From positions 160,001-224,000 of the forward strand of contig CAVQBK010000013.1 in NCBI GenBank assembly GCA_963710755.1: a DNA stretch of 64,000 nucleotides, in the 5' to 3' direction. Made by a program: the position numbers and the translations under genes. The notes beneath the pieces were generated by a model. The model made no database searches. It had not been told where the DNA came from and was given only the letters and a program-made list of their open reading frames with translations. Positions 10,101 through 58,360 of the stretch are shown one piece after another. Each line of letters begins with the position of its first letter. The first letter of the stretch is position 1. This stretch comes from an uncultured bacterium (GTDB lineage Bacteria; Oederibacteriota; JAAXVQ01; JAUVAV01).

Positions 10101-13100
10101 TCATGGTTGTATGGCTTTTCCAAATAAAAAAGCATATGCCAGCCCAATTTCATTAGCCGGTCCAATTCAACATCTGTCGAAGGAGCGGGCACCAAGTTCA
10201 GTGCCATTTCATAATACTCCGCCAAGGGGACCTGGACTTGCGATTGCGCCACTTGGCCTTCGTCTATTTCCTGACCTATGCCCGCGATGGTTTCAAAAAC
10301 CGGCTCAAAGGTATAATGTTCTTGATCGTGATTTTGCGCATTGCCTTGAGCCAGGTTATTTCCCAGCCGCTTTTTACGAACGTAATCAATGCCCATGCGA
10401 ATTAGCCAAGCACCAAGGATGGCCACGCCCCCAAGCCAGGTCAGCCCTGCAGTGGAAACTAAGATCCAATCCACACCGGCAGCCATGGAAACCGGACTAT
10501 AGAAAAGCCCGCTTAGGCCAAGTAGCGCGGTCAGGCCCACCGGCAAGGCCCATTGCATCAGACGGTCGCCGTAAGGATGCTTTTCTTGATAGCCCTCTAA
10601 TAACTCTTTTAGGGTTTCGGTTTTCCAAAAATAATGTTCAGGCAAATTAAAGACTCTATCCAGCTGGTCTAAATAAAAAAAGCGGGCATGGTCATTTTTG
10701 ATCTGCAGACCTAGCAAAAACAATTTGCCCAGTTCAAAGGGTTTAATTTTTACTCTTTTTCTTTTTTTAAGACGGTCTTCGGTCAATTGTTTTAATTTTC
10801 GTTTAATAATTTCATTTATAATTTCTTTCATCTCCGACCGCAGTTCTGCCGGCACCTTAAGTTCCACTTCTCTTCCCGCCGATTCCGATCCTTTGAGTTC
10901 AACCGGGCCGACCATGTTGTTCATGGTTTTACTGAGATGATTCATAAGCTGCTGTTGATCAGCGTTCATTAAACGTTTCAAGGTATCATAGTGCCCTTTA
11001 TTTTCTTTCCGGTATTGCGGCGAACAATCTTTCCAAGTAAGTTCAATATTTTCTTTGACAAAATCCAGGCCTTGAATGGTGCCGACATTTTGCCGGGGCG
11101 GTAAATCTTGATCGAGTGCGGGGGGCAGGATCGCCAGAAAATTCATCCAGGCCAACCAGGCTTCCATTCTATTTTCGGTCTTGACCACAGAAGTGATTTT
11201 GACGGCAATGTCATTCAAACTCTCAATGATGATGCCATAAAGCTCAAAAAATCGTCTTTGGATACCCCGGTATTTTAACAAATCTTCGTAAAGCGCGCTC
11301 AGGGTATGAGTGATCGCAGACGCATCGATCAGGTAAATGCTGCTGTTCTCCATCTCCGATGCGGCAATGGACTCCAAGGGGGTGTTATGCAATTGCAGCG
11401 GCCGCGGGGGCTGGCGCAAATGAAAGGTTATGCGGCTATAGGTCTGGTACTGTCTTATAACTCTTTCCAGCCAGGCTTGACGCATATGTTTGTTGTCCAA
11501 ATGCTCAATATGCCACAGGACGTGCTGCCAATTTATCAACAGGTCTTTTTCAATTTCGGGTTTTTCATGATCAACCGTTTTTTCAAACTCAGACAGTAGG
11601 AGGTCATTATGGTGTAACTGAAAGGCAATATAATCATAACGCCTTTCGTCAAGCTTTCCGATTTTTTTAAAGAACGGTGTTAACAAGTCCACCTCAGCGG
11701 TTGTCGTTTGATCCCGGTTTGCATTATTGTAAGTGACATTGATAGACGCCATTAAGCGCTTAGCCAAAGGCTGATCCGCCGGATTGTTTGCATAATTGAC
11801 CAACATCCATCCCAAGGCAAGCAACCGCTTCAGCCTCCCTTCCAGGTCAGGATATTTAAGGGTAAGGTGAAAAGCATCTTGTAAAAGGGTGTTCAAGTCT
11901 TGCATAGCTTGGATATTGGATGCATCCGAACTTGTATAAATCGGATTGACTACAGCATCCATCTCAAGCATTAAATGATTAAAATAAGCACTTATATTTT
12001 TTCCTGCCCAAGAACGCCATGCATCGGTAAGTTGCTTCGAGGCTTCGATGTCCTGCCAAATCGATTCGGGCATAGTGGCCAGCAACTTCAATAGATCATC
12101 GTCACTAACCTGATTTGGGAACATCTTGGACAACAATGAAATCTTTTGGAAATCTTCTTTGACTACTGCCCAATAGGTTTTCCAAAAAATGGCTTCCAGC
12201 GATTCTCCGTCGATGAGCATAGCCTGGCATTCCTGGAGGGGCATATTAACTACCAGCTTCATCAAATCCTTCAGTTTGGCTGAACTTGTTCTCTTCCTCT
12301 TAAATTGCTTGAGAAGAGCATCCATCTGGCTACGATTAAGGCTTTTAAGATTAAGTTTAAGAAAAAAGGACATTAAATTGAAAAGCAGCGCTTCTCGAGG
12401 TCCCCTATCAGTAATATTTTTCCCCAGGCCTTGATCACCAATGATCCACCGTTTTGCCGGAGGTGACGACCAATTATGACCAATATGGAGTGCTGTATGA
12501 ACACCAAAGTAAACCACGCCAAAGGTGCTGGTTAGGTGATATAACATCAATTCCGGCGCCTGCCAGATCACTTCTGCCAAAGAAGCATGCGGTGCTACAC
12601 TCACACCCATAAGTGACAGCACCAGCAAGCCCCAGGTGATCCACCACGTTCTGGTGCCGGCTTGGTTTATGGCTTTCACCACATCCTCACCTTTGGCGCG
12701 ATGAAGGTCGCCAAAGAAATTCTTGGCGAAAAGATTATTTAATAGCCTGGAAAACAATATCAGCAGCGGCACGGCCAGCCAAGGATCGTTGATCTGAAAT
12801 GTACTGTGGAAAAAATGCTCCACAAGGACACTGGTCTTGGGCAGGAACGCGATAGACAGGCCTGTAACCATCAGCGTAATTACACTCGACTCAGCAATGG
12901 GAAGAAGTACCATGGTTACCAATTTTTGGCCCCAATTTTCATAAGGTGTAACACCTGGAGCCGGGCTTCTTAATAATTCCGTCAACTCGCGATTGGTGGG
13001 CCGGTTTCCCCACCAATCCATCACCGCCAAAGCTATTATAATCGCGGCGGTGATTACCAAGGACGGCCAGAAATCAACAACCGCATGCCAACTCCAGGAA

Positions 13101-15121
13101 CCATGATAAAAAGTGATGGGAAGGAAAACAGATGCCATCTTGGTGACGGAAGCGGACAACGGCTTTTCCCGCCACCATTTGTCAACGGCGCTCCCTATCA
13201 CAACCCAAGGCCGTCTTGCCTTTTGTCTGATCTGTTTAAGCTGCTGTTCCACCGCTCCTTCTTGAGCGCTACTGATGACTGATGCGGCCAGGCCATGAGC
13301 TTCAAATACATACGGCAATTGAGTAAGGGGTCTGAGCTGCCACGCCGGTCCGGCCACCAGGCATAAGTTGGCATTGCCCATAGGCAACACCATGCTTTGG
13401 CCTGATTTGACGGCAGTAAACAAGCGCTGCAGTTGTTGAGGCGCAACAGCAAAGTCCTGTGCCTGAGCACCCACAAGTAGGCGCTCATCCATCGTGTAAT
13501 GGTGTTGCAGGCTTTTCAGATCTTCGCTGAGTTGATTTTCTGATTGAGCCTGATGTAACCGCTCCAGCATGGCCTGTTGCCACAGCAGTAATTGCTGCAT
13601 CGCTTCAAGGGACTTAATATTGCCTCTAAGCCCTTCCGGCAATTGCGCCATCATGGTTTGCAAGGTTTCTTCGGATAAAGGCTGAGTGGAAGTTATCCGG
13701 CTGGTTCTGGGCAGTTGAAAATTTCTGATTGGCGGGGCGATTAATTTTTGGTTTTTCAGCAACAGCGTTTCGAGGGGCGTTTTTTTATCCCGGATCAATT
13801 GAAAATAGGGATTAATCAAATCCTGATGGGTTAGCCTGGGCACAACGGAAATATAGGAAAAGCCGGCCTCTTTCAAGGCTGTTTGAACATCTTGGGCATG
13901 ATAGCCGCCGGTAATGAGTACTGCTGCCTGCTGATGGTGTTGTTCCATCATGGCGCTCAGATTGGTCACAAAGTTGCCGCTACGCTGATCCGCCTCTTTA
14001 TAGAAGCGGGCTACATCATCCAAATAGCTCTGCAAAGACGCGGCCTCCGGCATCATGAAGTCCGTCTCTTGCGGCGCCCATTGAGCCAGGGATTTCAAAA
14101 GCACAGCCACGCGGTAGTGATCTTGATGATTTATAAAGTCATGGACTTCACGGCGATTAGCCGCAATGGACAGTAATTTTTCCATCACATCCAGGTGTAA
14201 GCCAACCTCATTGATGGCTGCTTCTTGCGGGGTTGAAATAAGCGCTTTGGTCAGGGCTTGATCCAAGCGGCCGATCTCTTCCTGAAGCCGATCAGGATTA
14301 ATGCCGGTCACATAAGATGATTTTTGTTGTTGTAGATAACGGAAAATCTGGGAAAAAGGCGCAAGATCCAGATCCTGTTTTTTAGCCATCTGCCACAGTT
14401 GACCCGCATAGTCCGCCTGGGAACTTCGACCGTCTTTGTATGATTGGGTCATCTGTTCTAAACCAAGCAAGGGTTGATGGTAAAAACGCTTTTTGATGCT
14501 GCGCAGCATTTCTTTTAAATCAGCACAGTACCCCAGGCTTTCACTATTAAGAAAAGATCGCGCAGTCTGTAGATTTTTAAGGTAAAGCTCTTCGTTTTCA
14601 ATGCCTTCCAAAAACAATGGTTGCGAAGACAAGGCGCTGAAATATTCAGCACCCGAAATCAACCCTTGTTTCATCAAATAGTGACCCACCGCTTTTTTAG
14701 CCCGCGCCAGGGGAAAGGTGCCCAGCTTGCTGGTGTTGATTAAGCGGCCTGAGCCTTCTATACCAATGAGATTGATGCCCAGCCTTTGCGCAAGATCCTT
14801 CAAAATATTGGCAATATTTGATTGCACCTCATAATGACAATGCAGGTCCTGGATATGAATGACCACACCCCGGCTGTTGGGCGCCTCATAGGCTTGTTCC
14901 ACCGCGCCAAACTGGCGCGGCACGGTCACCACTTTCTGGTTCATGATTAAATAAGGCTGGCCCGATTGGAGATAGGTTCCCGGATCTACAGCCCAGGACA
15001 CTAAGGGCATAAGCATGAGCAGGCTCAACAGCATGGACAGGCTGGTTTTAAAAAGGTGATGACCAGGCAAAATCCGTTGTAATAAATAGTGTTGTTGCAT
15101 ATCGCGCTTTTTATTTTCCAT
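7190..15121 (-). CDS. Giant multidomain protein, paralog B (2643 aa): signal peptide, conserved N-terminal module, CPBP-like TM bundle, helical repeats, TM hairpins
   Basis: IHIQDLHCHYEVQSNIA, LIGIEGS, SGAEY, ADQRSGNFVTNL, LITGGYH and LINPYF align with paralogs A and C; internal duplications visible in the C-terminal half. Confidence 0.9.
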   Translation of the reverse strand: MENKKRDMQQHYLLQRILPGHHLFKTSLSMLLSLLMLMPLVSWAVDPGTYLQSGQPYLIMNQKVVTVPRQFGAVEQAYEAPNSRGVVIHIQDLHCHYEVQSNIANILKDLAQRLGINLIGIEGSGRLINTSKLGTFPLARAKKAVGHYLMKQGLISGAEYFSALSSQPLFLEGIENEELYLKNLQTARSFLNSESLGYCADLKEMLRSIKKRFYHQPLLGLEQMTQSYKDGRSSQADYAGQLWQMAKKQDLDLAPFSQIFRYLQQQKSSYVTGINPDRLQEEIGRLDQALTKALISTPQEAAINEVGLHLDVMEKLLSIAANRREVHDFINHQDHYRVAVLLKSLAQWAPQETDFMMPEAASLQSYLDDVARFYKEADQRSGNFVTNLSAMMEQHHQQAAVLITGGYHAQDVQTALKEAGFSYISVVPRLTHQDLINPYFQLIRDKKTPLETLLLKNQKLIAPPIRNFQLPRTSRITSTQPLSEETLQTMMAQLPEGLRGNIKSLEAMQQLLLWQQAMLERLHQAQSENQLSEDLKSLQHHYTMDERLLVGAQAQDFAVAPQQLQRLFTAVKSGQSMVLPMGNANLCLVAGPAWQLRPLTQLPYVFEAHGLAASVISSAQEGAVEQQLKQIRQKARRPWVVIGSAVDKWWREKPLSASVTKMASVFLPITFYHGSWSWHAVVDFWPSLVITAAIIIALAVMDWWGNRPTNRELTELLRSPAPGVTPYENWGQKLVTMVLLPIAESSVITLMVTGLSIAFLPKTSVLVEHFFHSTFQINDPWLAVPLLILFSRLLNNLFAKNFFGDLHRAKGEDVVKAINQAGTRTWWITWGLLVLSLMGVSVAPHASLAEVIWQAPELMLYHLTSTFGVVYFGVHTALHIGHNWSSPPAKRWIIGDQGLGKNITDRGPREALLFNLMSFFLKLNLKSLNRSQMDALLKQFKRKRTSSAKLKDLMKLVVNMPLQECQAMLIDGESLEAIFWKTYWAVVKEDFQKISLLSKMFPNQVSDDDLLKLLATMPESIWQDIEASKQLTDAWRSWAGKNISAYFNHLMLEMDAVVNPIYTSSDASNIQAMQDLNTLLQDAFHLTLKYPDLEGRLKRLLALGWMLVNYANNPADQPLAKRLMASINVTYNNANRDQTTTAEVDLLTPFFKKIGKLDERRYDYIAFQLHHNDLLLSEFEKTVDHEKPEIEKDLLINWQHVLWHIEHLDNKHMRQAWLERVIRQYQTYSRITFHLRQPPRPLQLHNTPLESIAASEMENSSIYLIDASAITHTLSALYEDLLKYRGIQRRFFELYGIIIESLNDIAVKITSVVKTENRMEAWLAWMNFLAILPPALDQDLPPRQNVGTIQGLDFVKENIELTWKDCSPQYRKENKGHYDTLKRLMNADQQQLMNHLSKTMNNMVGPVELKGSESAGREVELKVPAELRSEMKEIINEIIKRKLKQLTEDRLKKRKRVKIKPFELGKLFLLGLQIKNDHARFFYLDQLDRVFNLPEHYFWKTETLKELLEGYQEKHPYGDRLMQWALPVGLTALLGLSGLFYSPVSMAAGVDWILVSTAGLTWLGGVAILGAWLIRMGIDYVRKKRLGNNLAQGNAQNHDQEHYTFEPVFETIAGIGQEIDEGQVAQSQVQVPLAEYYEMALNLVPAPSTDVELDRLMKLGWHMLFYLEKPYNHDFVKIFTDRLIGTYQRFNIDRANLPTLHYLPLEQELNLLRGLYHETYMERLKAGLQLNQVINNFISEYPHLPSGAQQEGLQQLWPLMRIYLIDLHPSRQISVTMDRQSRAQYHFFKQRAQEWAIALPPIRINGKTIEELLEVDKYKDVEAAGDDIKIERIETSSNGLASHVNWENGPGFYKAYYDEIFKQEPGKVLTYVLADIKKAEHETLADQAEGELRGLITYMLKLLGQTVNHGRRLHFATELSGYLKHEGILTGQHDLNLIITLSRLKDEQLKTEIQEKLDSIALAQPMALLDSAYKALALIDDALRQRMLGEILIKIKVMISGTPITLASILEWYHDGGVDMENARAVSEKLPDYLAFLKPVIVEQSEKSPGNSQDKPFDEYEHDMKPALGLDVKGEKKPAIEQEGEKALDRAAPIGKNIRLKHHWTHNPNEAEREIRTNFRKRPAIALHHAMDELNTFVDAGSAESFAEIKLNALINLILELLGRTRDEQLRLTYAKKLRDMQQQKKDILDKDREEALNTLILLTESTDEELETMINAELETKKEYPSDYIEATFKIFAIRNQGKREAFLKQMVAKIGKLIRQNGMTSTLEYQKYSNVGIDLANKQLNLFGLPKHLLFLTYRSGQDGPEGPETNPKNVIRFPGNGHSAAILLASLGSGLLGLGHSNSLLAGPLDGPLSWGLEPNAWLLVATAALVVGWVLVRWWKERRTGRTVANGASLSRRLNTPYRRRGFKAIINVAGWIIGVFSPLLMTSIQSWKSLIQQRGKQRSREESLGPQHYFRSRIYKRILMNEMTGPWLGGAFLDRLLAAVILRVDGRTYWQTAAVLVSAGAAGPFDKLVLDPRQGLLAQLQARPGLSLAQRREELVRGLARIIQNHADELDGDFMFKAQELLVLSAPLTSQRLAIYQGRPLRLPNIMWEKGMKTVGGIILDGLDKHLGTDVIWDYRKVNTIMRRKPQQSALQGV

Positions 15122-20971: not shown

Positions 20972-21562
20972 TCATTTTTCCTCAAGATAACAAAAACACT
21001 CCTGCAAATGATCATTCACCATGCCTACGGCCTGCATGAAGGCATAGCAGATGGTGCTGCCCACAAAAGAAAAGCCTCGTTTTTTCATGTCCTTACTCAT
21101 GGCGTTCGATTCTCTGGTTTGGGCTGGTATCTCCCGCATGTTGGTATAATGGTTGTGGAGCGTTTGATAGCCCGTAAATTGCCAGATATAGCGGTCAAAG
21201 GTGGTAAATTCTTTTTGCACCTTTAAAAAAGCCCGGGCATTGGTGACTGCCGAGCGGATTTTTAATTGGTTACGTATGATACCGGGGTTTTGGAGCAACC
21301 GGTTAATCTTGGCTTCTTCGAAACGGGCCACCTTGCGCGGATCAAAACCGGCAAAAGCTTGACGATAGGCTTCCCGCTTTTTCAACACTGTAATCCACGA
21401 CAATCCGGCTTGCGCACCTTCCAGCACCAGCATCTCAAAAAGTTTTTGATCATCATGCACAGGCCGGCCCCACTCCAAGTCATGGTAAGCGGTATACAAT
21501 TCCCCTATCACCCAGGGACAACGTTTTTTCTCCATCGCTTTTCCCTTCGCCCGAACGTTCAT
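20972..21562 (-). CDS. tag: DNA-3-methyladenine glycosylase I
   Basis: RCPW, YHDLEWG, LEGAQAGLSW, IIRNQLKI, FMQAVGMVNDHLQEC. Confidence 0.95.
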   Translation of the reverse strand: MNVRAKGKAMEKKRCPWVIGELYTAYHDLEWGRPVHDDQKLFEMLVLEGAQAGLSWITVLKKREAYRQAFAGFDPRKVARFEEAKINRLLQNPGIIRNQLKIRSAVTNARAFLKVQKEFTTFDRYIWQFTGYQTLHNHYTNMREIPAQTRESNAMSKDMKKRGFSFVGSTICYAFMQAVGMVNDHLQECFCYLEEK

Positions 21563-24147: not shown

Positions 24148-27100
24148 TTATTTAATCACCGCCACTCTGACGTATTTGGTTACATTCGGCGTTTTGACCA
24201 ACACAATATAAATACCCGACGGCACAATCTCGCCTTGCGCGGTTCGCCCATCCCAAGTAGTTTCGTGCATCCCGGCTGTATATACCCGCTCTTTCACAAG
24301 CTCGGCAATTAGTTTCCCTTGCAGGGTGTAGACTTTAATGTCCACCAGGCCTTGGTTTTCACAGTAAAAACTGATAATGGCCGGCTGATCATTGCGGGTG
24401 GGGTTGATTTTATTGTTATAGGCCTTGACCGGGGTTTCCCGGTCCGTATGCACCACTGAAGTGGGCGTGCTGGTGGGAATCAACGTACAGGTCGCTGTCG
24501 GGGTAGATGTTGGGGTTGGGGTAAGGGTGGCCTCAGGCGTACCTGTTGTTGCCGTCGGGGTGGGGGTTGCTGTTAAGGTGGGCGTAGGTGTGGCCATCGG
24601 ACCATTGACGTCGATGCGCGGCGAATACCCTTGAGCCACAGGATTAGGATCTCCGGCATCAAGATCGCGAGCTCTGATGTATATCGTTCCGCCCAGATTA
24701 TAGGTTTCATTGGGTATGGTGCAGACACCATTGATGGTTTGGCCGGTGTTAATGTATAGCGTTCCAGTGGCCGGTGTAAGTGGTGAAAGGCTGCTGTAAA
24801 CATCAAGTGCAAATAACCTGTTTATATTGATAATTTGATTCAACGTATCATGGACAATTTCCACCCTCACATTAAAGGTGTTGGGATGGGCTTCCACCAA
24901 AACAGTTTGATTATCCGACACGCGGATGCCATCAATCACCAATTCATAATGGAACAAGCCGGTCTGGGAGATCCGGAGATACGCTACCGTTAAACTTTCA
25001 GCACCATCTATAATCGAGCCATTGGTCAGGTCGTAAGGCCTTAAAGTTCTCAACCCATTGCTGCGCAGTTGGGCGCTGAACCAAGCCCGGCCACCGGCCA
25101 GAGTGCTGTTAAGAAACGCCCCGGAATTGGGTTCCGCTTCGCTATTGGGATCATCAGAACGTAGTTCAATGGAATTGGTCGGCGCGCTGCTGCCTACAAA
25201 GTTACCGAACAAGTCCACCGCCTGAACCGTTACGGGGAAGTAAATCCCTTCCACTTCAATGTTGCCTTCATAAGTAGTACTGGTTGGTCCTGAAACGCCG
25301 CTATACCAACTATTGGCCGGCAGACCCTGCACAGCCCCGATGGCCAGGCCGGAATTACCGCTGCCTTCCACGGCGGTCAAGCCGGGCACCAATATCTGAA
25401 GTCCATAATAAGCACCGGGATTAACGGTAATATTGGGCGTGGTCCCGTCCGTGGCCGTCACTGTGGTAGGGCTAAAGGTGATGGTCTGGGTCCCGTGGGT
25501 ATGGAATCTGAAGGTGTTGGTAAAGTCGGCATAGCCATTGATATTATCCACCTGTTTATTGGCCGGTGGTGGCGAGAAGGGATCAGATGTATCGAGTGTC
25601 ACATTGAAGGACGGCGTGCCCTTCACAATATTGCCGTAGATGTCGCAAGTATAGGCCCGCAAAGCAGAAGCATGAATCCCCGCTGTTTCCGCCGAAGGAC
25701 TACCGAAGTTGTTAAATACATTTACTGACGCAGGTGGCGGTGTGGAAGAATAAAGCGCGCCCGTGGGATCTACATAAGTACCACCGGCACCCATATCATC
25801 GGGAATACTCATGCCTGTGGTATAGGCCACCACCCGGGCAAAAGAATTATTAAGGACATTGAAATTTTGGGATACGCCGGTACGGCCTCCGGCGCCAAAA
25901 TCATAAGCCGCGGTCAGGAATTCCCCGCCACCGGTAACCTTTTTGTACACGTAAATCCAGGGATAGGAAATACCTTCGGTCCACTTGGTGGCATCAAGCG
26001 TTCCCAATTTGGTAGGCCACATGCTCTTATTGCTGATATCCGTATTGGCGCTCAAATTAACACTGGTATAGGTCCCAAAGGCCGCGCCGCCATTGAGTGA
26101 GTTGAGGGTGTTGCCGTAACAATCCACAGCTGCCACGGTGACGGCAAAGGGTACACCAGCTTTCGCTGCACCGCTGCTGAAAGCGGCCTGGCTGGTATTG
26201 ATGATAAAGTTAAACCTTCTGGTCCTGCTATCATAAGGTGAAACAATATCCAGATTGGCTGCGGCGTGTTTGACAGGCACCGCATTTTTATTGGTGCCAA
26301 GAACATAAGTGGTATAGCCGCCTAAATTCACACCGATCTGCTGGCCTGTACTGCCGTTAACCTTGTAGAGCACAAAGCTGTTGTTGGCCTGATAAACACC
26401 ATTGCTCAGATTCACGGACAAGGTACCACCGCTGAATTGACCCACCCCCAGGATTTGAGCCGGGAAAGGGTCGCTGCAGGTGATGGTGACGGCTGCATTG
26501 GCATCTTGCGCGGGCGTGGTGACGGTGTTCCAGTAGTCATCGCAGAGATAGAAATCAATTTGGGAAATAGGCGCACCAGCCGTCTGTTCCGCCGGTTGCC
26601 CTTGCACGGACAACGCCCCAGTTGGATCAATGTCAGGATTAAGCCCATTGTACCGCTCCATGCCCCCTTCTTCCACAATCAGCATTTTGGTGGGCACATT
26701 ATGGCAAATCCTAATGGTGGCTGAGTTGTTCTGGGTCGCCCCCAAAGATACGGTAATATTATTGTTTTCAGTAGGTGTCCGGTTGGCCCTGAACACGGTG
26801 ACTTGCCCATTCCACACGCCGTTGGTGAAGGTAATGGAGGTGGGACGAATGACTTTCATGGTCGGGCTATGATCAAGGGTGCAGCTTAGATCAGCAGCAC
26901 CATTAAAGGTCGTGGCCACATGGGTGCCATCGGACCAGGCGGTAATGGACACATTGACCGGCACGCCGGCCACCCATTGCGACGGCCATGCGCCACCGCT
27001 GACCAGTTCCAGGTCAAAGTGATCCATGCTAAAGGTGGTGATGGTATAAGGCGTTACATAGGTATTGACGCCAGGTGCAGGATTGTCAATGGTAATCGAG

Positions 27101-28590
27101 TAATCGGAATCAGCATTAAAGGTCACATCCAATTGGCGCAAGCCGTTGAACAGCGAATTGGTTACGTTATGAATGTCCGACGTATTGGGTAACGTGGTGG
27201 TGGTAAAGTTGTCATTGCCATCAGTCCTGATATTCCAGTACAAGTCCGTGGCATAGATGGTAACGGAAAAAGCGTTGCCTTGCTGTTGAGTCAAGGGTGT
27301 CCCATTGTACCCTACGCCTGCAAAATAAGTATTGCCGCTCGAATCGGCACCAGGACGGTAACTGAGGCCCGGCACAGTGGCAAACATGGTCCTGTAGGTG
27401 TTGGGATTAACGGTCATACCCACAGTCTGGCCGATATGACCGGTATGGCTGGTGGGCGTATCTGTGGCAATATCGGAGACAAACAAAGATGCTGTCGAGG
27501 GGGTGGTGGTCGCCCGGTAAATCCTGACATTCAAATTAGCAACGCCGGAAGTAAAGGCAGCTCCAGGCACTAACCAATTGGCAGTGGATGAGCTTGAGGT
27601 ATAATTGGAAGTGGCCCCATTGATCTGGATGACGCTCTGAGTCGGGCCAAAATAATCAAGGGGCGGGCAGGTCACGTATACCGTGTTGCTATAAGATTGT
27701 ACGTCATTTTCATATTGGTCCTTGGCTCGTATGGACATGGTGAATTGGTTACCAGCCGTCTGGGTAGCCCCGGCGCTCACTGTTAAATGGTCAAAAGTGG
27801 TATTCAGTACCGTAAACTGACCTGAGGCTTGATCAAAAGGCGGATTGCCGGAAGGCATATGGATATTTTGGTTGGACGTGGCCACGGTCAGCGTAATTTG
27901 CGCTATTCCCTGTCCAGTGCTGATAACAATGGGATCTGGATTGCTGCTGGCCAGGGCATCAGTCACATCGAGATGGCTGGCTGGATTCCAATCCAAATTT
28001 GCGCTTTGATTGACCTGGTTACCGTAGACATCGGTGATATACACATTGATGGTGACCGGGCTACCGGCGGTCACGTTGTTGGGCGTTCCTGTTCTGCCCC
28101 AAGTCCCGCTATGCCGCTCACCAGGCGTGTAAGTCTGGCCGGGCATGACCGTCAAATACCAGAAGGCGCTGCTGGTTACGACATCAAAGTTTGTCGACAC
28201 CGCATCCGTTACACCGACGCTGCTGTTACTGATAGTCACCGTATAATTGCTGGCTGCTTTTTTAATGTTCAAATTCCCTGTAAACACACCGTTGCTGAAA
28301 GCCGCTGAATTAAAGGTTGGTGATACAGACCATGATTCGTAAGTGCTGGACAAGGTGGTAGCACCGTATTTAATGGTCATGGTGGTTGTTCCGGGGATGC
28401 TGGTCACAGTGTTGCCGGCAGCGTCAACCCCAACAATGGCAAGGGTGATATTGGAACCAGCGGTATAGCTGGAAGTAAAATTGTTTCTAAATTCAAAATG
28501 ATCAAGTGTGGCAGCTTGGCTTAATACCCCCATGCCAAGTCCCATGAGCACAATCCCAAACACCATCAAGAGTCGTTTAAACCTTTTCAT
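24148..28590 (-). CDS. Large secreted Ig-repeat surface protein with PT linker and C-terminal FlgD-Ig/T9SS-CTD-like domain
   Basis: Signal peptide, repeated DHF...AG...DxYGN beta modules, TPTPT linker, IKVYTLQGKLI...WDGRTAQGEIVPSGIYIV. Confidence 0.85.
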   Translation of the reverse strand: MKRFKRLLMVFGIVLMGLGMGVLSQAATLDHFEFRNNFTSSYTAGSNITLAIVGVDAAGNTVTSIPGTTTMTIKYGATTLSSTYESWSVSPTFNSAAFSNGVFTGNLNIKKAASNYTVTISNSSVGVTDAVSTNFDVVTSSAFWYLTVMPGQTYTPGERHSGTWGRTGTPNNVTAGSPVTINVYITDVYGNQVNQSANLDWNPASHLDVTDALASSNPDPIVISTGQGIAQITLTVATSNQNIHMPSGNPPFDQASGQFTVLNTTFDHLTVSAGATQTAGNQFTMSIRAKDQYENDVQSYSNTVYVTCPPLDYFGPTQSVIQINGATSNYTSSSSTANWLVPGAAFTSGVANLNVRIYRATTTPSTASLFVSDIATDTPTSHTGHIGQTVGMTVNPNTYRTMFATVPGLSYRPGADSSGNTYFAGVGYNGTPLTQQQGNAFSVTIYATDLYWNIRTDGNDNFTTTTLPNTSDIHNVTNSLFNGLRQLDVTFNADSDYSITIDNPAPGVNTYVTPYTITTFSMDHFDLELVSGGAWPSQWVAGVPVNVSITAWSDGTHVATTFNGAADLSCTLDHSPTMKVIRPTSITFTNGVWNGQVTVFRANRTPTENNNITVSLGATQNNSATIRICHNVPTKMLIVEEGGMERYNGLNPDIDPTGALSVQGQPAEQTAGAPISQIDFYLCDDYWNTVTTPAQDANAAVTITCSDPFPAQILGVGQFSGGTLSVNLSNGVYQANNSFVLYKVNGSTGQQIGVNLGGYTTYVLGTNKNAVPVKHAAANLDIVSPYDSRTRRFNFIINTSQAAFSSGAAKAGVPFAVTVAAVDCYGNTLNSLNGGAAFGTYTSVNLSANTDISNKSMWPTKLGTLDATKWTEGISYPWIYVYKKVTGGGEFLTAAYDFGAGGRTGVSQNFNVLNNSFARVVAYTTGMSIPDDMGAGGTYVDPTGALYSSTPPPASVNVFNNFGSPSAETAGIHASALRAYTCDIYGNIVKGTPSFNVTLDTSDPFSPPPANKQVDNINGYADFTNTFRFHTHGTQTITFSPTTVTATDGTTPNITVNPGAYYGLQILVPGLTAVEGSGNSGLAIGAVQGLPANSWYSGVSGPTSTTYEGNIEVEGIYFPVTVQAVDLFGNFVGSSAPTNSIELRSDDPNSEAEPNSGAFLNSTLAGGRAWFSAQLRSNGLRTLRPYDLTNGSIIDGAESLTVAYLRISQTGLFHYELVIDGIRVSDNQTVLVEAHPNTFNVRVEIVHDTLNQIININRLFALDVYSSLSPLTPATGTLYINTGQTINGVCTIPNETYNLGGTIYIRARDLDAGDPNPVAQGYSPRIDVNGPMATPTPTLTATPTPTATTGTPEATLTPTPTSTPTATCTLIPTSTPTSVVHTDRETPVKAYNNKINPTRNDQPAIISFYCENQGLVDIKVYTLQGKLIAELVKERVYTAGMHETTWDGRTAQGEIVPSGIYIVLVKTPNVTKYVRVAVIK

Positions 28591-48167: not shown

Positions 48168-48559
48168 TCAATCAATTTAAGTTTTCTTATTTCCTCGATC
48201 AACTCACTATCTTCAAAGGGTTTGACCAAGTAGGCGTCACAGCGATGGCGGAAAGATGCAATAACATTGGGGGTATCATCGGTGGCGGTCAACATGATGA
48301 CTTTCACGCCGTCAACTTCTTTTATGTTCATTTCCTGCTCCATGACCCGGATCTTCTCCAAAGCCTGCAAGCCGTTCATAACGGGCATCATGATGTCCAA
48401 AATGATCAAATCAAAAGGCTGTTGCTGGTTCAAAGCCGTCTGAAATTTGGCTACAGCCTCGGCCCCGTTTTTGGCCGTCACACTACGGCCGTAAGGTTTC
48501 AGAAATATTTTGATCATTGTTTGAATGTTCGGCTCATCTTCCACGACCAAGGTTCGCAT
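48164..48559 (-). CDS. Single-domain response regulator (CheY-like)
   Basis: VVEDE, LDIMMP, MLTA, YLVKPF. Confidence 0.9.
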   Translation of the reverse strand: MRTLVVEDEPNIQTMIKIFLKPYGRSVTAKNGAEAVAKFQTALNQQQPFDLIILDIMMPVMNGLQALEKIRVMEQEMNIKEVDGVKVIMLTATDDTPNVIASFRHRCDAYLVKPFEDSELIEEIRKLKLID

Positions 48560-49398
48560 TACAGTTCAAATTCCTCCAGGGCTTGAGTGAGTCTTGACTT
48601 AACATCCTGTTCTATCCGAAGCTGCTGGTCCGCACTTATGCCCAGACGCTGGATCACGTTTTCATCCAAATGATTGGCCTGGACAGGGGCGCCCAGACCT
48701 TCACCGATGTGTTTGGCCATATGATTGGCAAACATGACCAAGTCGAGCAAGCGGTTGGAAGCCGTGGGTTGACGGTGATGCTGTTCTATCACCACAATGA
48801 TTTCCTCTGGAAATTTCCAATAACCGGCCAGGGCAGCACCCACTTCTGCATGATCAATATTTAACAACTGTTGCTCCGCTTCCGCGTAAGAACACTTTTT
48901 TTCCAAAATTTCATCCCTGATTTTCTTAACCATCTGAGGCTCAAGATGACGGCTTAGAATGAGTTTACCGATGTCATGAAGCATGGCGGAGGTAAAGGCC
49001 ATGGACGGAATCTCCATCCTTATTTGGCGCTGGAAGCTCTCGATAGTCAGTCCTGCGGCTACATTGTGGCGCCAAAGTTCGTTCTCCATCAGATTGTAGC
49101 CGGGTACTTTGCGTTTCATGGTTTTACCCAGGCTGTTGCCGATGGCCAGTTTTATAATGTTGTTAAGCCCAAGCCGCATGACTGCTGATTTAACCGTATT
49201 GATTTCAAACTGGCTGCGATAAAAGGCGGAATTGGCCCAGCGCAGCACATTGGCCGTCAAGGCACCGTCCAATTCGATAAGGCGTGATATTTCATTCACC
49301 CCATAATGGGCGTCATTCATCAATCCGGTCAGTTGACTGACCGTGGTTGACATGGGGGCTAAGTTGCGGATTTCTGCCGGATTAATCTTAATGCGCAT
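48559..49398 (-). CDS. HDOD domain signalling protein
   Basis: LRWANSAFY, AVMRLG, MLHDIGKLIL, DHAEVGA, WKFP...HH. Confidence 0.92.
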   Translation of the reverse strand: MRIKINPAEIRNLAPMSTTVSQLTGLMNDAHYGVNEISRLIELDGALTANVLRWANSAFYRSQFEINTVKSAVMRLGLNNIIKLAIGNSLGKTMKRKVPGYNLMENELWRHNVAAGLTIESFQRQIRMEIPSMAFTSAMLHDIGKLILSRHLEPQMVKKIRDEILEKKCSYAEAEQQLLNIDHAEVGAALAGYWKFPEEIIVVIEQHHRQPTASNRLLDLVMFANHMAKHIGEGLGAPVQANHLDENVIQRLGISADQQLRIEQDVKSRLTQALEEFEL

Positions 49399-54398: not shown

Positions 54399-55691
54399 TC
54401 AATCGTTTTCATCCTCCGGGCCATAGCGTTTCACCATGGTCAATTCATTGTAATTGTGTAAAGTACTGTATTTGACCTGATCCATAATCTGGTTCACCAT
54501 AAAGGCCCCAACCCCGCGCTTTTTACCTTTTAAAACATTGGACTTGATAGTGGACGTATCCTGCTTGGTAATGTCAAAAGGATCACCATAATCACGAATT
54601 TGGATTTTGACCTGTTTTTTTTGAAAGTGAACGCGCAGCACCAAAATCTGCCAGGGATCAAAATCATTACCGTGTTCCATCAAATTGAGAAGAATCTCTT
54701 CCACGGCCAGCACCACTTCATTGGTTGTTTCCGGACTCATGCCTTCTTTTTCACATAAGCCTGTTAAAGATACTCTGATCACACCCATATAATTAACATC
54801 AGCGTTGATCTTTAACTCCATGCCTTTATATTTAGATTTGCGGCGTTTGGCTGTGGACCCGCTTTTAATAGTGAGTTGATTGCCCCACTCATCAATCTGA
54901 AAGGTCTCGTCACAATGTTCACATCGGTAAAGATCCGGGCCGGTGACCACCATCTCGTGGCCGCAAGTTTTACATTGCACCGTAAGGGGAAAAACTGCTT
55001 TTTCAGTTTTTTCCTTCACCTCCACTTGCAACTGCCCGCTTTTACCCCGGTCTTCCACGCGCAGGCTGACAGAGCCTGAAGCGCTGAGCGTGACCTCACC
55101 CTCCCATACCCCTTGCTTAAAGCCCTGCAATTGCTGAGGCAAAACCATACCTTCCTGGCAGCGTAAATCAGGTTGGTCATGGTAATCTCCAAGCAGGCCT
55201 GATTCTTTTGTTTGCGCTTCCACTCTAAGCATCACCGGCGTGCCACGGTAGACTTCACTTGCCGGGAGGGATAACACAAAATGATCCAATTCGTCCACCA
55301 GGGCTTCCCCGGCGGACCATTGGGTAAGCTGAGCAGGGGTGTCAATCAATTCGATCATGTCATCAAGCCCGATGGAGGCAAATACTTTTCTGATTTTTGG
55401 AGAGACATGACAAACCTTGATGTCGCCTTCCGGGCGGTCTCTGAATTCCCCTACCATGCCCACGAAAATACCCACGCCGGCGGAACTGATGTAATCAACA
55501 GCTTGTAAATCAATCAAAATTTTGGCCTGATCCCGGTTAAGCTGCTGCTGCAATTGGGCTTCAAAATCATGTGCAGTATCGGAATCAATGGAGCCCTGAA
55601 TTTTTAATAATTGCACGCCCGGCAAATGATCTATCGTTTCATAGACAAATGTCAATTCTTGTCCCATAAGTCCTCCGTTCTTTCCAACCAT
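54399..55691 (-). CDS. Fusion: STAS anti-sigma antagonist + Ig-like + Zn ribbon + RsbW-like HATPase
   Basis: VDYISSAGVG (STAS), CKTC...CEHC, LAVEEILLNLMEHG, IRDYGDPFD, RGVGAFMVNQIMD. Confidence 0.88.
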   Translation of the reverse strand: MVGKNGGLMGQELTFVYETIDHLPGVQLLKIQGSIDSDTAHDFEAQLQQQLNRDQAKILIDLQAVDYISSAGVGIFVGMVGEFRDRPEGDIKVCHVSPKIRKVFASIGLDDMIELIDTPAQLTQWSAGEALVDELDHFVLSLPASEVYRGTPVMLRVEAQTKESGLLGDYHDQPDLRCQEGMVLPQQLQGFKQGVWEGEVTLSASGSVSLRVEDRGKSGQLQVEVKEKTEKAVFPLTVQCKTCGHEMVVTGPDLYRCEHCDETFQIDEWGNQLTIKSGSTAKRRKSKYKGMELKINADVNYMGVIRVSLTGLCEKEGMSPETTNEVVLAVEEILLNLMEHGNDFDPWQILVLRVHFQKKQVKIQIRDYGDPFDITKQDTSTIKSNVLKGKKRGVGAFMVNQIMDQVKYSTLHNYNELTMVKRYGPEDEND

Positions 55692-57334
55692 TATTTTTTC
55701 TTTTTTGACTTGGCTGTTTCAATTTTATTGTTGAGTTTGGTTATGCTGCGCTTATCGCCCAAGGCTTTGGCAATAATCAGCAAATGCCGGTCTTCATAGG
55801 TCTTGAGGGTTCCGGTCACAATAGTTTCGATGCGTCCGGCTTGGTCATCACTGGTTAAGAACGTCGCGATGACCCGGCCAAAATAATCCCACTGCTGTCC
55901 CTGACCATCGCTGGAAGATGGGGATTTGGTCTGTTGGTATTGTGCGTAAAACTGATTGGCCAGCTTCTGTTCTTCTTTATCTAAAACCGCATCTTTAATT
56001 TTACGGTCCAATCCCAACCCCGCATAGGCCACTTTATTTTTATCGTGATTTAAATACTGGTCTATCAAAAGCAATTGGAACGTCTTAAAGGCTACTGCAC
56101 CATCTTCTTCCAAATGGGTGTGGCTAAAAGATACATTTCGGGCATCGTCCGATTGGGCTTGATTGTACTGATCAATGGCATGCAAACAATCATGGAACCA
56201 ATCGATTCTCAGCTGATCCAGTCCGTGGGCAACGTCTATGTGAATAGGGTTGGTGCCTGAAGATTTGGCCGCCTCTGCAGGAGGAGCTTCTGCTTCTTCT
56301 TTGGCCTTGGCTTCTGCTTCTTCTTTGGCCTTGGCTTCTGCTTCTTCTTTGGCCTTGGCTTCTGCTTCTTCTTTGGCCTTGGCTTCTGCTTCTTCTTTGG
56401 CCTTGGCTTCTGCTTCTTCTTTGGCCTTGGCTTCTGCTTCTTCTTTGGCCTTGGCTTCTGCTTCTTCTTTGGCCTTGGCTTCTGCTTCTTCTTTGGCCTT
56501 GGCTTCTGCTTCTTCTTTGGCCTTGGCTTCTGCTTCTTCTTTGGCCTTGGCTTCTGCTTCTTCTTTGGCCTTGGCTTCTGCTTCTTCTTTGGCCTTGGCT
56601 TCTGCTTCTTCTTTGGCCTTGGCTTCTGCTTCTTCTTTGGCCTTGGCTTCTGCTTCTTCTTTGGCCTTGGCTTCTGCTTCTTCTTTGGCCTTGGCTTCTG
56701 CTTCTTCTTTGGCCTTGGCTTCTGCTTCTTCTTTGGCCTTGGCTTCTGCTTCTTCTTTGGCCTTGGCTTCTGCTTCTTCTTTGGCCTTGGCTTCTGCTTC
56801 TTCTTTCGCCTTGGCTTCTGCTTCTTCTTTGGCCTTGGCTTCTGCTTCTTCTTTCGCCTTGGCTTCTGCTTCTTCTTTGGCCTTGGCTTCTGCTTCTTCT
56901 TTGGCCTTGGCTTCTGCTTCTTCTTTCGCCTTGGCTTCTGCTTCTTCTTTGGCTTTGGCTTCTGCTTCTTCTTTCGCCTTGGCTTCTGCTTCTTCTTTGG
57001 CCTTGGCTTCTGCTTCTTCAGTAGGAGCTTCTGATCTTTTTAAATTTCGAGAGATTTGTTGATCCACATGGTTTTCTTTGGCAATTTCAGCAACAGCTGC
57101 CGCTCCGGCTGCGGAGGCAAGGCTACCCTTTTCTTTTTTTTCTGCTTTCGGTTCCTGGACTTTATTCTTTTTGGCCAATAATGAAAAGAGTATCCAGTAG
57201 ACCGTGGTCAGAACGAGCGCTACCACAAAAAAAGTACCAAAAGGCATGATACCTTGGGCTACCATGGCCAACATGCTCGGCCCAATAATAAATAATGAAA
57301 TCACCAATAATTCTTTCATTTCCATTTCTCCCAT
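55691..57334 (-). CDS. Membrane-anchored protein with TolA-like EEAEAKAK repeat stalk
   Basis: Two N-terminal TM segments, 30 octapeptide repeats, ~190-aa C-terminal domain. Confidence 0.8.
   Translation of the reverse strand: MGEMEMKELLVISLFIIGPSMLAMVAQGIMPFGTFFVVALVLTTVYWILFSLLAKKNKVQEPKAEKKEKGSLASAAGAAAVAEIAKENHVDQQISRNLKRSEAPTEEAEAKAKEEAEAKAKEEAEAKAKEEAEAKAKEEAEAKAKEEAEAKAKEEAEAKAKEEAEAKAKEEAEAKAKEEAEAKAKEEAEAKAKEEAEAKAKEEAEAKAKEEAEAKAKEEAEAKAKEEAEAKAKEEAEAKAKEEAEAKAKEEAEAKAKEEAEAKAKEEAEAKAKEEAEAKAKEEAEAKAKEEAEAKAKEEAEAKAKEEAEAKAKEEAEAKAKEEAEAKAKEEAEAKAKEEAEAKAKEEAEAPPAEAAKSSGTNPIHIDVAHGLDQLRIDWFHDCLHAIDQYNQAQSDDARNVSFSHTHLEEDGAVAFKTFQLLLIDQYLNHDKNKVAYAGLGLDRKIKDAVLDKEEQKLANQFYAQYQQTKSPSSSDGQGQQWDYFGRVIATFLTSDDQAGRIETIVTGTLKTYEDRHLLIIAKALGDKRSITKLNNKIETAKSKKKK
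56286..57019. repeat. 24-bp coding tandem repeat, 30 full copies plus a partial
   Basis: Unit TTTGGCCTTGGCTTCTGCTTCTTC from 56300 to 57019, a few TTTCGCC variants. Confidence 0.95.
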
Positions 57335-57529
57335 TTAAATGATTAGCCCAAAGGCATTTATAGGGGTTAACCGGAATAGTGGCTTGTCTATCACCACAAA
57401 AGCCTCGCGGTTCCTGGTTGACTGTCACAAGCTTGAATTCAAAATCTCCATAATCTATGAACCATTAATACTATATCGGCAGTAAGCTACATATTCAAGT
57501 CAGATGGAAAAATAATTATAAGCAGCTCT

Positions 57530-58360
57530 CTAGTCAGTGCGTAATATTTTTCTGATGATGGTCATGAGCAGGAAAAACATAAAATTGATCATGACAATCG
57601 TTGCCCCGGCCGGAAAATTAAGCAAGAAAGCCAATAGGATACCAAAAAGCACGGATCCGACCGCAATCATAACAGCAATGAGGATAGCCTGCCGGAACCC
57701 TTTGGCAATCTGTAGGGCGGAAATGGGAGGGAAAATGATCAAACTGGCCACCAACATGGTGCCTACCACTTTGATGCCCAAAATCACGGTCAAAGCGGTA
57801 AGAAGTACCAGCAGTCGATCCATACGCCTGGTCTTGATGCCCTGTACCCTGGCATGATCTTCGTCAAAGGTAATGGCAAACAGTTCATTAAAGAAAACGA
57901 TGATGGTGATAAGGACCAGAAGCGATAAGACAATAGCAAAAATGGTCTCCACCTTGCTTACTGCCAGAATATCGCCAAATAAATAACTGAACAGGTCTAC
58001 ATTGAATCCGCCCGCCTTGCTGGCCAGGATAATGCCCAGGGCAATACCAATGGCCGAGATGAGGCCAATGGCCGCATCACTATAAACATTGGCGCGCTCA
58101 GCCAGGTGCAAAATCCAAAAGGATGCCAGCACAGCCAGGGGAGCGGCCACATAAAAGGGGTAGACATTGATCAGCAGGCCCAGGCCGATGGTGCCAAAGG
58201 AAAAATGGGACAGGCCTTCGCCAATCAGAGATAAGCGTTTTAAAACCAAAAACACGCCCAGGCAGGCGCAGGAAACTGCAATAAATGTGCCGCTAAGCAA
58301 GGCCCTTTGAATAAAGCCCAATTTCAACCCTTCAAGAATGGTGTCCATGGCCCGGCTCAC
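57530..58360 (-). CDS. znuB: Zn/Mn ABC transporter permease
   Basis: SLIGEGLSH, YLFGDIL, FDEDHARVQG, VGTMLV, PAGATIV. Confidence 0.88.
   Translation of the reverse strand: MSRAMDTILEGLKLGFIQRALLSGTFIAVSCACLGVFLVLKRLSLIGEGLSHFSFGTIGLGLLINVYPFYVAAPLAVLASFWILHLAERANVYSDAAIGLISAIGIALGIILASKAGGFNVDLFSYLFGDILAVSKVETIFAIVLSLLVLITIIVFFNELFAITFDEDHARVQGIKTRRMDRLLVLLTALTVILGIKVVGTMLVASLIIFPPISALQIAKGFRQAILIAVMIAVGSVLFGILLAFLLNFPAGATIVMINFMFFLLMTIIRKILRTD

Follow-up and report, generated by a model that had tools for sequence, protein, structure and literature searches.

The window analyzed here, a 64,000-nucleotide stretch of the genome of an uncultured bacterium (contig CAVQBK010000013.1), encodes three giant proteins that share a sharply bounded module of about 420 residues at the N-terminus of each open reading frame (ORF). 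On balance, the best explanation of this module is that it is the exported hydrolase head, of the TIKI/erythromycin esterase (Ere) type, of giant membrane proteins. Predicted structures indicate that it very probably belongs to the TIKI/TraB/ChaN/erythromycin-esterase superfamily, and its complete, nearly invariant set of catalytic-type residues suggests that it is probably an active hydrolase. We regard the module as a very large family new to this known superfamily and set in an undescribed giant-protein architecture.

The three ORFs, delimited by their translations, lie on the (-) strand, as do all features of the window located below. P0001 (7190..15121) encodes 2643 residues and P0002 (39991..47004) encodes 2337 residues. 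Only the 5' part of P0003 (1..4263) is present because the frame extends past the window edge; in the full genome it is an open frame of 2213 residues with an HD domain at approximately residues 1127-1263. The module spans residues 46-465 of P0001 (13727..14986), 31-450 of P0002 (45655..46914) and 52-476 of P0003 (2836..4110); window positions 13740-15121 correspond to P0001 residues 1-461. The trimmed modules of P0002 and P0003 are 33% and 39% identical to the P0001 module, and about 90 alignment columns are invariant. Mean pairwise identity drops at the module boundary from 46% in the last 40 residues to 14% over the next 300. The C-terminal tail of the module (TPLEKLL..NQ...A.P), which sits where conservation ends, is itself conserved and has low model confidence. 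A profile built from the three modules was searched against the window's own genome (3.44 Mb, 13 contigs). Because it finds 31 ORFs there at E values from 1e-70 to 1e-224, the three modules are homologous and not alike by chance.

Five motifs recur in the P0001, P0002 and P0003 modules: QD(L/M)HC at residues 91, 76 and 97, respectively; G(I/L/V)EG at 120, 105 and 126; GIE at 173, 158 and 179; DQRS (..N) at 378, 363 and 389; and GGYH at 405, 390 and 416. An earlier note on this DNA had described a module with QDxH, GxEG, GIE, DQRS..N and GGYH as common to the three ORFs, with the motifs at β-strands and a long helical insert between them. All of the motifs are present in all three modules, and DSSP assignments on the AlphaFold2 model agree with the described secondary structure. 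The number of paralogs given there, three, was too low, as the genome profile search gives 31.

An alignment of 51 modules (30 from the same genome and 21 from short library proteins) was used for structure prediction. The AlphaFold2 model of the P0001 module has a predicted local distance difference test score (pLDDT) of 89.7, falling to 43-71 in the C-terminal tail, and a predicted template modelling score (pTM) of 0.86; a second model, of a natural paralog with a short insert, has a pLDDT of 91.1. As modelled, the module is built around an α/β core whose parallel sheet aligns with solved structures of the TIKI superfamily, to which one study assigns HopBA1, Bcr135, ChaN, PMT and RRSP (PMC6254334). 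When both models were aligned exhaustively with 48,161 representative PDB chains, ranks 1-5 were occupied by the same five TIKI-superfamily structures, with 160-192 residues aligned at root-mean-square deviations of 3.8-5.9. These are EreC 6xcq (Z 9.2 with 173 residues aligned for the P0001 model and Z 9.8 for the short-insert model), 2qgm (Z 9.0 and 8.6), ChaN 2g5g (Z 8.5 with 192 residues aligned, and Z 8.6), 2rad, which is BcR135 (Z 8.5 and 8.4), and HopBA1 5t09 (Z 8.2 and 9.3). Tetrapyrrole methylases and signal recognition particle (SRP) GTPases follow at Z 6-7.7 with about 100 residues aligned. The top three matches of Foldseek against the PDB were EreC 6xcs (E 7.5e-3, probability 0.96), 6xcq and 3b55, with 2rad at ranks 5 and 7, and re-ranking of the best 997 Foldseek chains left the TIKI-superfamily picture unchanged. 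The fold result carries weight because one small superfamily tops both searches and aligns over 160-192 residues, versus about 100 for the rows that follow.

DSSP assigns nearly all of module residues ~131-350 in the P0001 model to helices. They make up a helical lobe inserted in the predicted α/β core (P0001 residues ~176-395, 13937..14596), and the last long helix of this lobe bears R380. Two paralogs, G000:C5:147297-148307 (L029) and G000:C13:145661-146608 (L030), lack about 85 lobe residues (profile positions ~168-251) and keep all motifs; a Pfam search of the two at E≤10 returned no relevant family. Since one such paralog is predicted to fold (pLDDT 91) with the same fold matches, this part of the lobe appears dispensable for the core. 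Weak secondary matches to the helical-lobe part of the profile were also observed far downstream in the tails, at P0002 residues ~2069-2139 and at comparable sites in eight other paralogs, which suggests helical repeats of a similar kind elsewhere in the giant proteins. Among the TIKI-superfamily rows of the structural search stood a 383-residue subunit of Tetrahymena mitochondrial complex IV (8b6h_DQ, 8bqs_DQ, 7w5z_E; Z 7.3-8.8 over 185-191 residues), which may itself be TraB-like.

The candidate catalytic residues fall within the five motifs. According to PMC6254334, the His-Glu pair of Bcr135 is H85/E113, the essential 2His/2Glu set of RRSP is E3900, H3902, E3930 and H4030, plus R4001, and PMT is a superfamily member that lacks the catalytic motif and is inactive. 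In P0001, D92-L-H94 of the first His motif (QDLHC, 14840..14848) is the proposed counterpart of RRSP E3900-x-H3902 and is arranged like it. E122 of GIEG (14756..14758), the proposed counterpart of Bcr135 E113 and RRSP E3930, lies 28 residues past H94, the same spacing as H85/E113 in Bcr135 and H3902/E3930 in RRSP. E175 of GIE (14597..14599) is the last residue of the third core strand; an invariant Glu of TraB (GLET) occupies the corresponding place among the motifs. R380 of DQRS (13982..13984) is proposed to correspond to the basic residue that TIKI enzymes conserve (R4001 in RRSP), and H408 of GGYH (13898..13900), a GxxH motif, follows it by 28 residues, as compared with 29 between R4001 and H4030 in RRSP. 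The assignment of H408 draws on its conservation and on hhalign, which aligned only the DQRS-GGYH block with TraB, in the expected register, pairing it with TraB RN..GAxH. In the TraB/GumN alignment built here from 49 sequences, the invariant elements GxxH, E, E, RN and GxxH succeed one another as their counterparts do in the module.

In module numbering of the P0001 model, H94 lies two residues beyond strand 41-47, E122 within strand 73-79, E175 at the end of strand 125-130 and H408 three residues beyond strand 354-360, with R380 in the long helix before that strand. Located at the C-terminal ends of neighbouring parallel strands, the conserved residues would meet in one pocket. Conservation was evaluated in 234 family proteins (203 from the library and 31 from the window's genome). 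The first His is retained in 232 of 232 sequences, the Glu corresponding to E122 in 233/233, the Arg in 230/232, the second His in 233/233 and the Asp in 229/232; the third acid, at E175, is Glu in 223 and Asp in 11 of the 234. The GG of GGYH (233/233), the Tyr of an NPYF motif (220/220) and the Cys after the first His (215/232) are conserved as well. We infer catalysis because the full residue set is nearly invariant and has been lost in inactive members such as PMT (PMC6254334).

The family is large. The 34 profile matches in the window's genome correspond to 31 open frames, two of which matched in two pieces, and one 115-residue fragment. The 31 module-bearing frames range from 635 to 9,474 residues and sum to 80,801 residues, or 7.0% of the genome; of the genome's long open frames, they are 26 of the 53 that reach 1,500 residues and 22 of the 36 that reach 2,000. 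A library of 1.84 billion representative proteins, clustered at 50% identity, yields 8,814 matching clusters at E≤1e-3 and 3,681 at E≤1e-30. In each of the 203 library proteins examined, the module begins no later than residue 150 (median 42), and these carriers have a median length of 2,462 residues and a maximum of 7,768. Scoring of the best 8,000 candidates by shared words gave 13 stand-alone heads, proteins of 231-735 residues that come mostly from short contigs or are marked partial. Of 99 genomes searched from the GTDB phylum, 15 carry the module (E≤1e-10), namely the window's genome, all 10 others of its family and all four of a sister family in the same order; the other 84 genomes have none at this threshold. 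Positive genomes hold from 6 to at least 18 copies, in open frames of up to 13,678 residues. In public records, 278 of 306 candidate stretches proved to hold relatives; the titles of such records read candidate division FCPU426, Candidatus Firestonebacteria, Candidatus Goldiibacteriota or "uncultured bacterium", and more distant relatives are labelled Omnitrophota, Endomicrobia and Chlamydiota. The ESM Atlas contributes 30 clusters of "hypothetical protein", mostly Omnitrophota and without a common Pfam family.

Several individual loci of the genome deserve mention. The 115-residue fragment (G000:C3:174859-175173) matches the first quarter of the module (E 2.2e-6), contains one internal TAA and is probably a decayed module copy. 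An open frame of 8131 residues on G000:C4, starting near base 21437 (+) and the second largest of the genome, was not matched by the module profile; the leader of this frame (…LLVTFAFT…ANAFD…) is similar to those of the module family, and it may have a very divergent or a different head. On contigs C11 (8.8 kb) and C12 (9.3 kb), the modules begin with nearly the same residues as that of the paralog at C4:146561-150529, and the C11 frame stops at 635 residues; these modules may be assembly variants or recent duplicates. Module-bearing genes also occur as tandem same-strand pairs at G000:C1:318112-328425 (1171 with 2204 residues) and G000:C4:49359-63480 (2464 with 2198 residues), and three lie within 33 kb in the region of the window. 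Such tandem and closely spaced genes fit local duplication.

Features of the leaders point to export of the module. P0001 residues 1-44 (14990..15121) form a candidate signal peptide with a basic stretch, a hydrophobic stretch, Pro at -6 and the junction VSWA/VD. In all 31 paralogs the module directly follows a leader with basic residues, a hydrophobic stretch and Pro near -6. The junctions read, for example, LVSWA/VD, VTWA/FD or VTWA/FE, and a (W/F)(A/S/T)(F/L/V/I) pattern was counted by eye in 30 of the 31. By their sequences, the leaders look like signal-peptidase-I signal peptides, at which cleavage would occur. The first membrane-helix candidate after the P0001 module is at residues 680-698 (13028..13084) in a Kyte-Doolittle scan, and a simple hydropathy scan places the first hydrophobic helix 130-245 residues past the module in 22 of 30 paralogs. 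Because OEP and AcrB proteins are encoded in the window, the organism probably has an outer membrane. With a signal-peptide-like leader and a membrane helix that follows, the head is probably periplasmic and tethered.

The tails differ from one paralog to the next. Fifteen of the 31 contain at least one Pfam domain at E≤1e-5, and the other 16 contain none at this threshold. PPDK_N is found in four paralogs and HD in two; the remaining domains include GH77, alpha-amylase, glucoamylase-like, TreT_GT1/GT1, NTP_transferase, NUDIX, GNAT, GGDEF, LMWPc, cytidylate kinase, transglutaminase and nSTAND3.

In the mechanism we propose, the leader would export the module and the membrane helix ~130-245 residues downstream would usually tether it, such that the module would serve as a conserved periplasmic head on tails that vary. 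An Ere-like helical lobe would be inserted after the third strand of the α/β core. D92-x-H94 and E122, aided by E175 and H408, would activate a water molecule for attack on the carbonyl of a peptide or ester, with the substrate held by R380, as proposed for Ere enzymes and RRSP. The function would be tied to the carrying chain because every giant has its own head and stand-alone heads are rare at best, and the most likely job would be the processing of an exported segment of the head's own chain or of a bound partner. Self-processing specifically is doubtful. Since the head is placed outside the cytoplasmic membrane, autoproteolysis would be limited to exported parts of its own chain, and the C-terminal tail of the module would be a candidate cleavage site.

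A bolder version of this mechanism, which we consider unlikely in its full form, is that the head marks a huge, as yet undescribed class of polymorphic giant membrane proteins and works in cis, either as a built-in protease for maturation or shedding in the periplasm or as a sensor gated by proteolysis. The layout would be a signal peptide, a protease-type ectodomain, a membrane helix and a variable, enzyme-rich tail of 1,000 to more than 13,000 residues, and the class would be spread over FCPU426, Firestonebacteria, Goldbacteria, Omnitrophota and Elusimicrobia. The head would then control the release, activation or turnover of each giant tail, with the segment TPLEKLL..NQ...A.P as a candidate cleavage or pseudo-substrate site. 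If true, a cis-acting protease head would be a processing principle not described for bacterial giant proteins.

A number of results weigh against an exported TIKI/Ere-type hydrolase head, and most concern the superfamily assignment. Searches at the sequence level gave no significant link. Pfam and NCBIfam searches with the three window proteins gave nothing on the module, and scans of the whole of Pfam-A with these proteins, the 51 modules (at E≤10) and the 31 paralogs did not reach the gathering cut-offs of PF05139, PF01963 or PF04187. The only Pfam family of the clan to be touched was ChaN PF04187, weakly (E 0.061) and by 2 of the 51 modules. A search for PF04187 in 99 genomes of the phylum gave no match, and neither did the control genomes. 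Profile searches against the PDB returned unrelated chains only (E 0.23-2.2). With hhalign, the whole module scored E 0.09 against the 49-sequence TraB alignment, the core P 0.027 and the C-terminal half P 0.007, as compared with 0.14-0.4 for reversed controls (0.14 for the C-terminal half); the N-terminal half gave P 0.23 and was out of register. The first motif is QDxH rather than GxxH, Gly being replaced by Gln or Asp. On the structural side, Foldseek produced no PDB match at E≤0.001, Z scores of 8-10 are modestly above the background of 7-8 that the alignment tool states for models without a clear match, and RRSP 5w6l ranked only 42nd (Z 5.9, short-insert model; Z 6.1 in the re-ranking of the best 997 Foldseek chains). 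The fold is not always that of a hydrolase, as ChaN, PMT-C2 and HopBA1 illustrate. Export is read from leaders judged by eye and a crude hydropathy scan, in which P0002 has no hydrophobic helix before residue ~2276. Self-cleavage is further disfavoured by the tails with nucleotide-using domains, which are probably cytoplasmic and beyond the reach of the head, and the linker after the module contains no conserved motif as a candidate self-cleavage site.

Because no Pfam family matches, the module falls in no described family and its link is at the level of the superfamily only, a link that draws on predicted structure and motif logic. The earlier note had proposed a TIKI-superfamily fold and had expected AlphaFold and Foldseek to return matches of the ChaN/EreA/TIKI/RRSP type. 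The predicted structures bear this out, with EreC, BcR135/136, ChaN and HopBA1 as the five best matches and RRSP lower, whereas the sequence-profile tests were negative or weak. Its further proposal, that the His, Glu, Arg and His resemble the active site of the TIKI superfamily, is in keeping with their near invariance (n=234) and with spacings like those given for Bcr135 and RRSP (PMC6254334). The first motif departs from GxxH in being QDxH, and convergence of the residues in one pocket is predicted from their positions at strand ends.

Three other explanations were considered. A generic α/β (Rossmann-like) resemblance, with the module unrelated to the TIKI superfamily and the motif order coincidental, would account for Z scores of only 8-10, for tetrapyrrole methylases and SRP GTPases as the next matches at Z 6-7.7 and for the lack of a significant sequence-profile link. 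We regard it as very improbable: two independent models each draw their five best matches out of 48,161 chains from one small superfamily, over 160-192 residues versus about 100, and five motifs occur in a TraB-like order and in TraB-like secondary-structure settings, with 28-residue spacings as described for Bcr135 and RRSP. The exported head could instead be a non-catalytic ectodomain, a ligand-, metal- or haem-binding or docking module that would either sense a signal or anchor the protein to a shared partner in the periplasm, the variable tails being the outputs. ChaN is among the best matches (Z 8.5-8.6) and has the most aligned residues (189-192), PMT belongs to the superfamily yet lacks the catalytic motif (PMC6254334), and the layout is receptor-like, with an exported head, one helix and tails containing GGDEF, HD, PPDK-like, phosphatase and kinase domains. 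It is equally conceivable that the Asp, His, Cys, Glu and His bind a metal. This explanation is improbable given that 229-233 of 232-234 sequences retain the complete 2His/2 acid/Arg set of the active enzymes, a set that inactive members such as PMT have lost (PMC6254334).

An enzyme working in trans would differ from our proposal in its target: the head would be a periplasmic or surface esterase or peptidase acting on a common external substrate (for example a signalling peptide, part of the envelope, or an ester in prey or in a polymer), and the tails would only anchor it. The characterized active members named in PMC6254334 all have other molecules as their targets. Erythromycin esterases, which share the two-lobe build, are the best structural matches; export of the head is predicted, and some paralogs have glycan-active tail domains (GH77, alpha-amylase, glucoamylase-like, GT1). 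A shared substrate, on the other hand, would not call for 31 copies per genome, each at the N-terminus of a different giant protein, and stand-alone forms are rare or absent (13 proteins of 231-735 residues among the best 8,000 candidates). We judge this explanation unlikely and favour a hydrolase head that serves its own chain or a bound partner.

The gene neighbourhoods were also surveyed. No partner gene recurs among the ORFs within 6 kb of the 31 paralogs, and an operon partner such as an immunity or chaperone gene was rejected on this basis. A polymorphic toxin, with a conserved N-terminus, a variable C-terminal toxin and an immunity gene, was likewise rejected because the tails are thousands of residues long with housekeeping-type enzyme domains and there is no recurrent paired small gene. 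The largest neighbour cluster consists of HDOD-like ORFs, one of them at window positions 48559-49398; of the 31 giant genes, 5 have such an ORF within 6 kb, and its orientation varies. Elsewhere in the window, a 547-residue ORF (55691-57334) has Pro-rich repeats matching Cornifin/SPRR (E 1e-11) and sits in the window's most extreme AT skew (-0.288, 56001-58000). A 1480-residue ORF (24148-28590) lacks the module and has only a C-terminal FlgD_ig-like domain (E 3e-6); its product is another large protein, possibly surface-located.

The giant genes found in candidate phyla currently pose a puzzle. For one very large class among them, a head with a predicted fold is now defined. The class comprises at least 8,814 clusters at 50% identity, and in a single genome it takes up 31 genes, 7% of the sequence and, of the 36 open frames that reach 2,000 residues, 22. 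With a complete catalytic-type residue set and a likely extracytoplasmic location, the head makes giant-protein processing testable on one soluble domain of ~420 residues and four point mutants. The TIKI/Ere superfamily would gain a large family that is invisible at the sequence level and for which Pfam or InterPro could build a model.

Of the known systems, the erythromycin esterases (EreC 6xcq/6xcs and Bacillus cereus BcR135/136: 2rad, 3b55, 2qgm) were the best structural matches in every search. They have an α/β core with a large helical lobe, as the module does in its model, and the His-Glu spacing of 28 is that described for Bcr135. The Ere enzymes are soluble proteins of ~400 residues, whereas the module, which has no PF05139 match, 9-14% identity and QDxHC as its first motif, is predicted to be exported and is fused at the N-terminus of giant membrane proteins. 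TraB/PrgY/GumN (PF01963) and metazoan TIKI share with the module the order strand-xxH, strand-E, strand-E, R(N/S), strand-GxxH, and in PrgY and TIKI a domain outside the membrane is followed by membrane helices. TraB differs in lacking the ~200-residue helical lobe and in its size, ~290 residues as compared with thousands here; PF01963 is absent from the window's own genome and present in 4 of 61 genomes sampled from the phylum.

RRSP (a MARTX effector), PMT C1/C2 and HopBA1 resemble the module proteins in placing a TIKI fold within or beside very large multidomain proteins or toxins, and RRSP has a 2His/2 acid plus Arg set with spacings like those of the module (PMC6254334). In these proteins the domain is internal or C-terminal cargo delivered into host cells, whereas the module is always N-terminal (203/203) and nothing in the module proteins suggests a toxin. 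ChaN, a haem-binding lipoprotein (PF04187), provided the longest structural alignments. It is a haem binder and is not known as a hydrolase, whereas the module keeps the full catalytic-type set.

A possible parallel in overall architecture is with the giant proteins of Omnitrophota and relatives ("Archaeovorins"; bioRxiv 10.1101/2023.11.21.568195 and 10.64898/2026.06.07.730766). Those membrane proteins of giant size have signal peptides, and GT, GH, NUDIX, PPDK_N, GGDEF, HD and methyltransferase domains are scattered along them; a similar mix occurs in 15 of the 31 paralogs (the other 16 being without a Pfam domain at the threshold used above), and relatives of the module also carry Omnitrophota labels. 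The proteins described here are of 635-9,474 residues, and of up to 13,678 in relatives, not of more than 30,000. According to these descriptions, the N-terminal regions of the giant proteins are mostly without identifiable domains (bioRxiv 10.1101/2023.11.21.568195, 10.64898/2026.06.07.730766). The main texts do not mention TraB, Tiki or erythromycin esterase, and "esterase" does not appear in that of 10.64898/2026.06.07.730766; among the literature matches listed, none links giant proteins of these phyla to the TIKI superfamily. N-terminal C39 or S8 peptidase domains have been suggested as possibly cutting giant proteins (bioRxiv 10.1101/2023.11.21.568195), which would parallel processing by the head by analogy only. 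Relative to those described Archaeovorins, the head reported here would be a third, different hydrolase-type domain besides C39 and S8.

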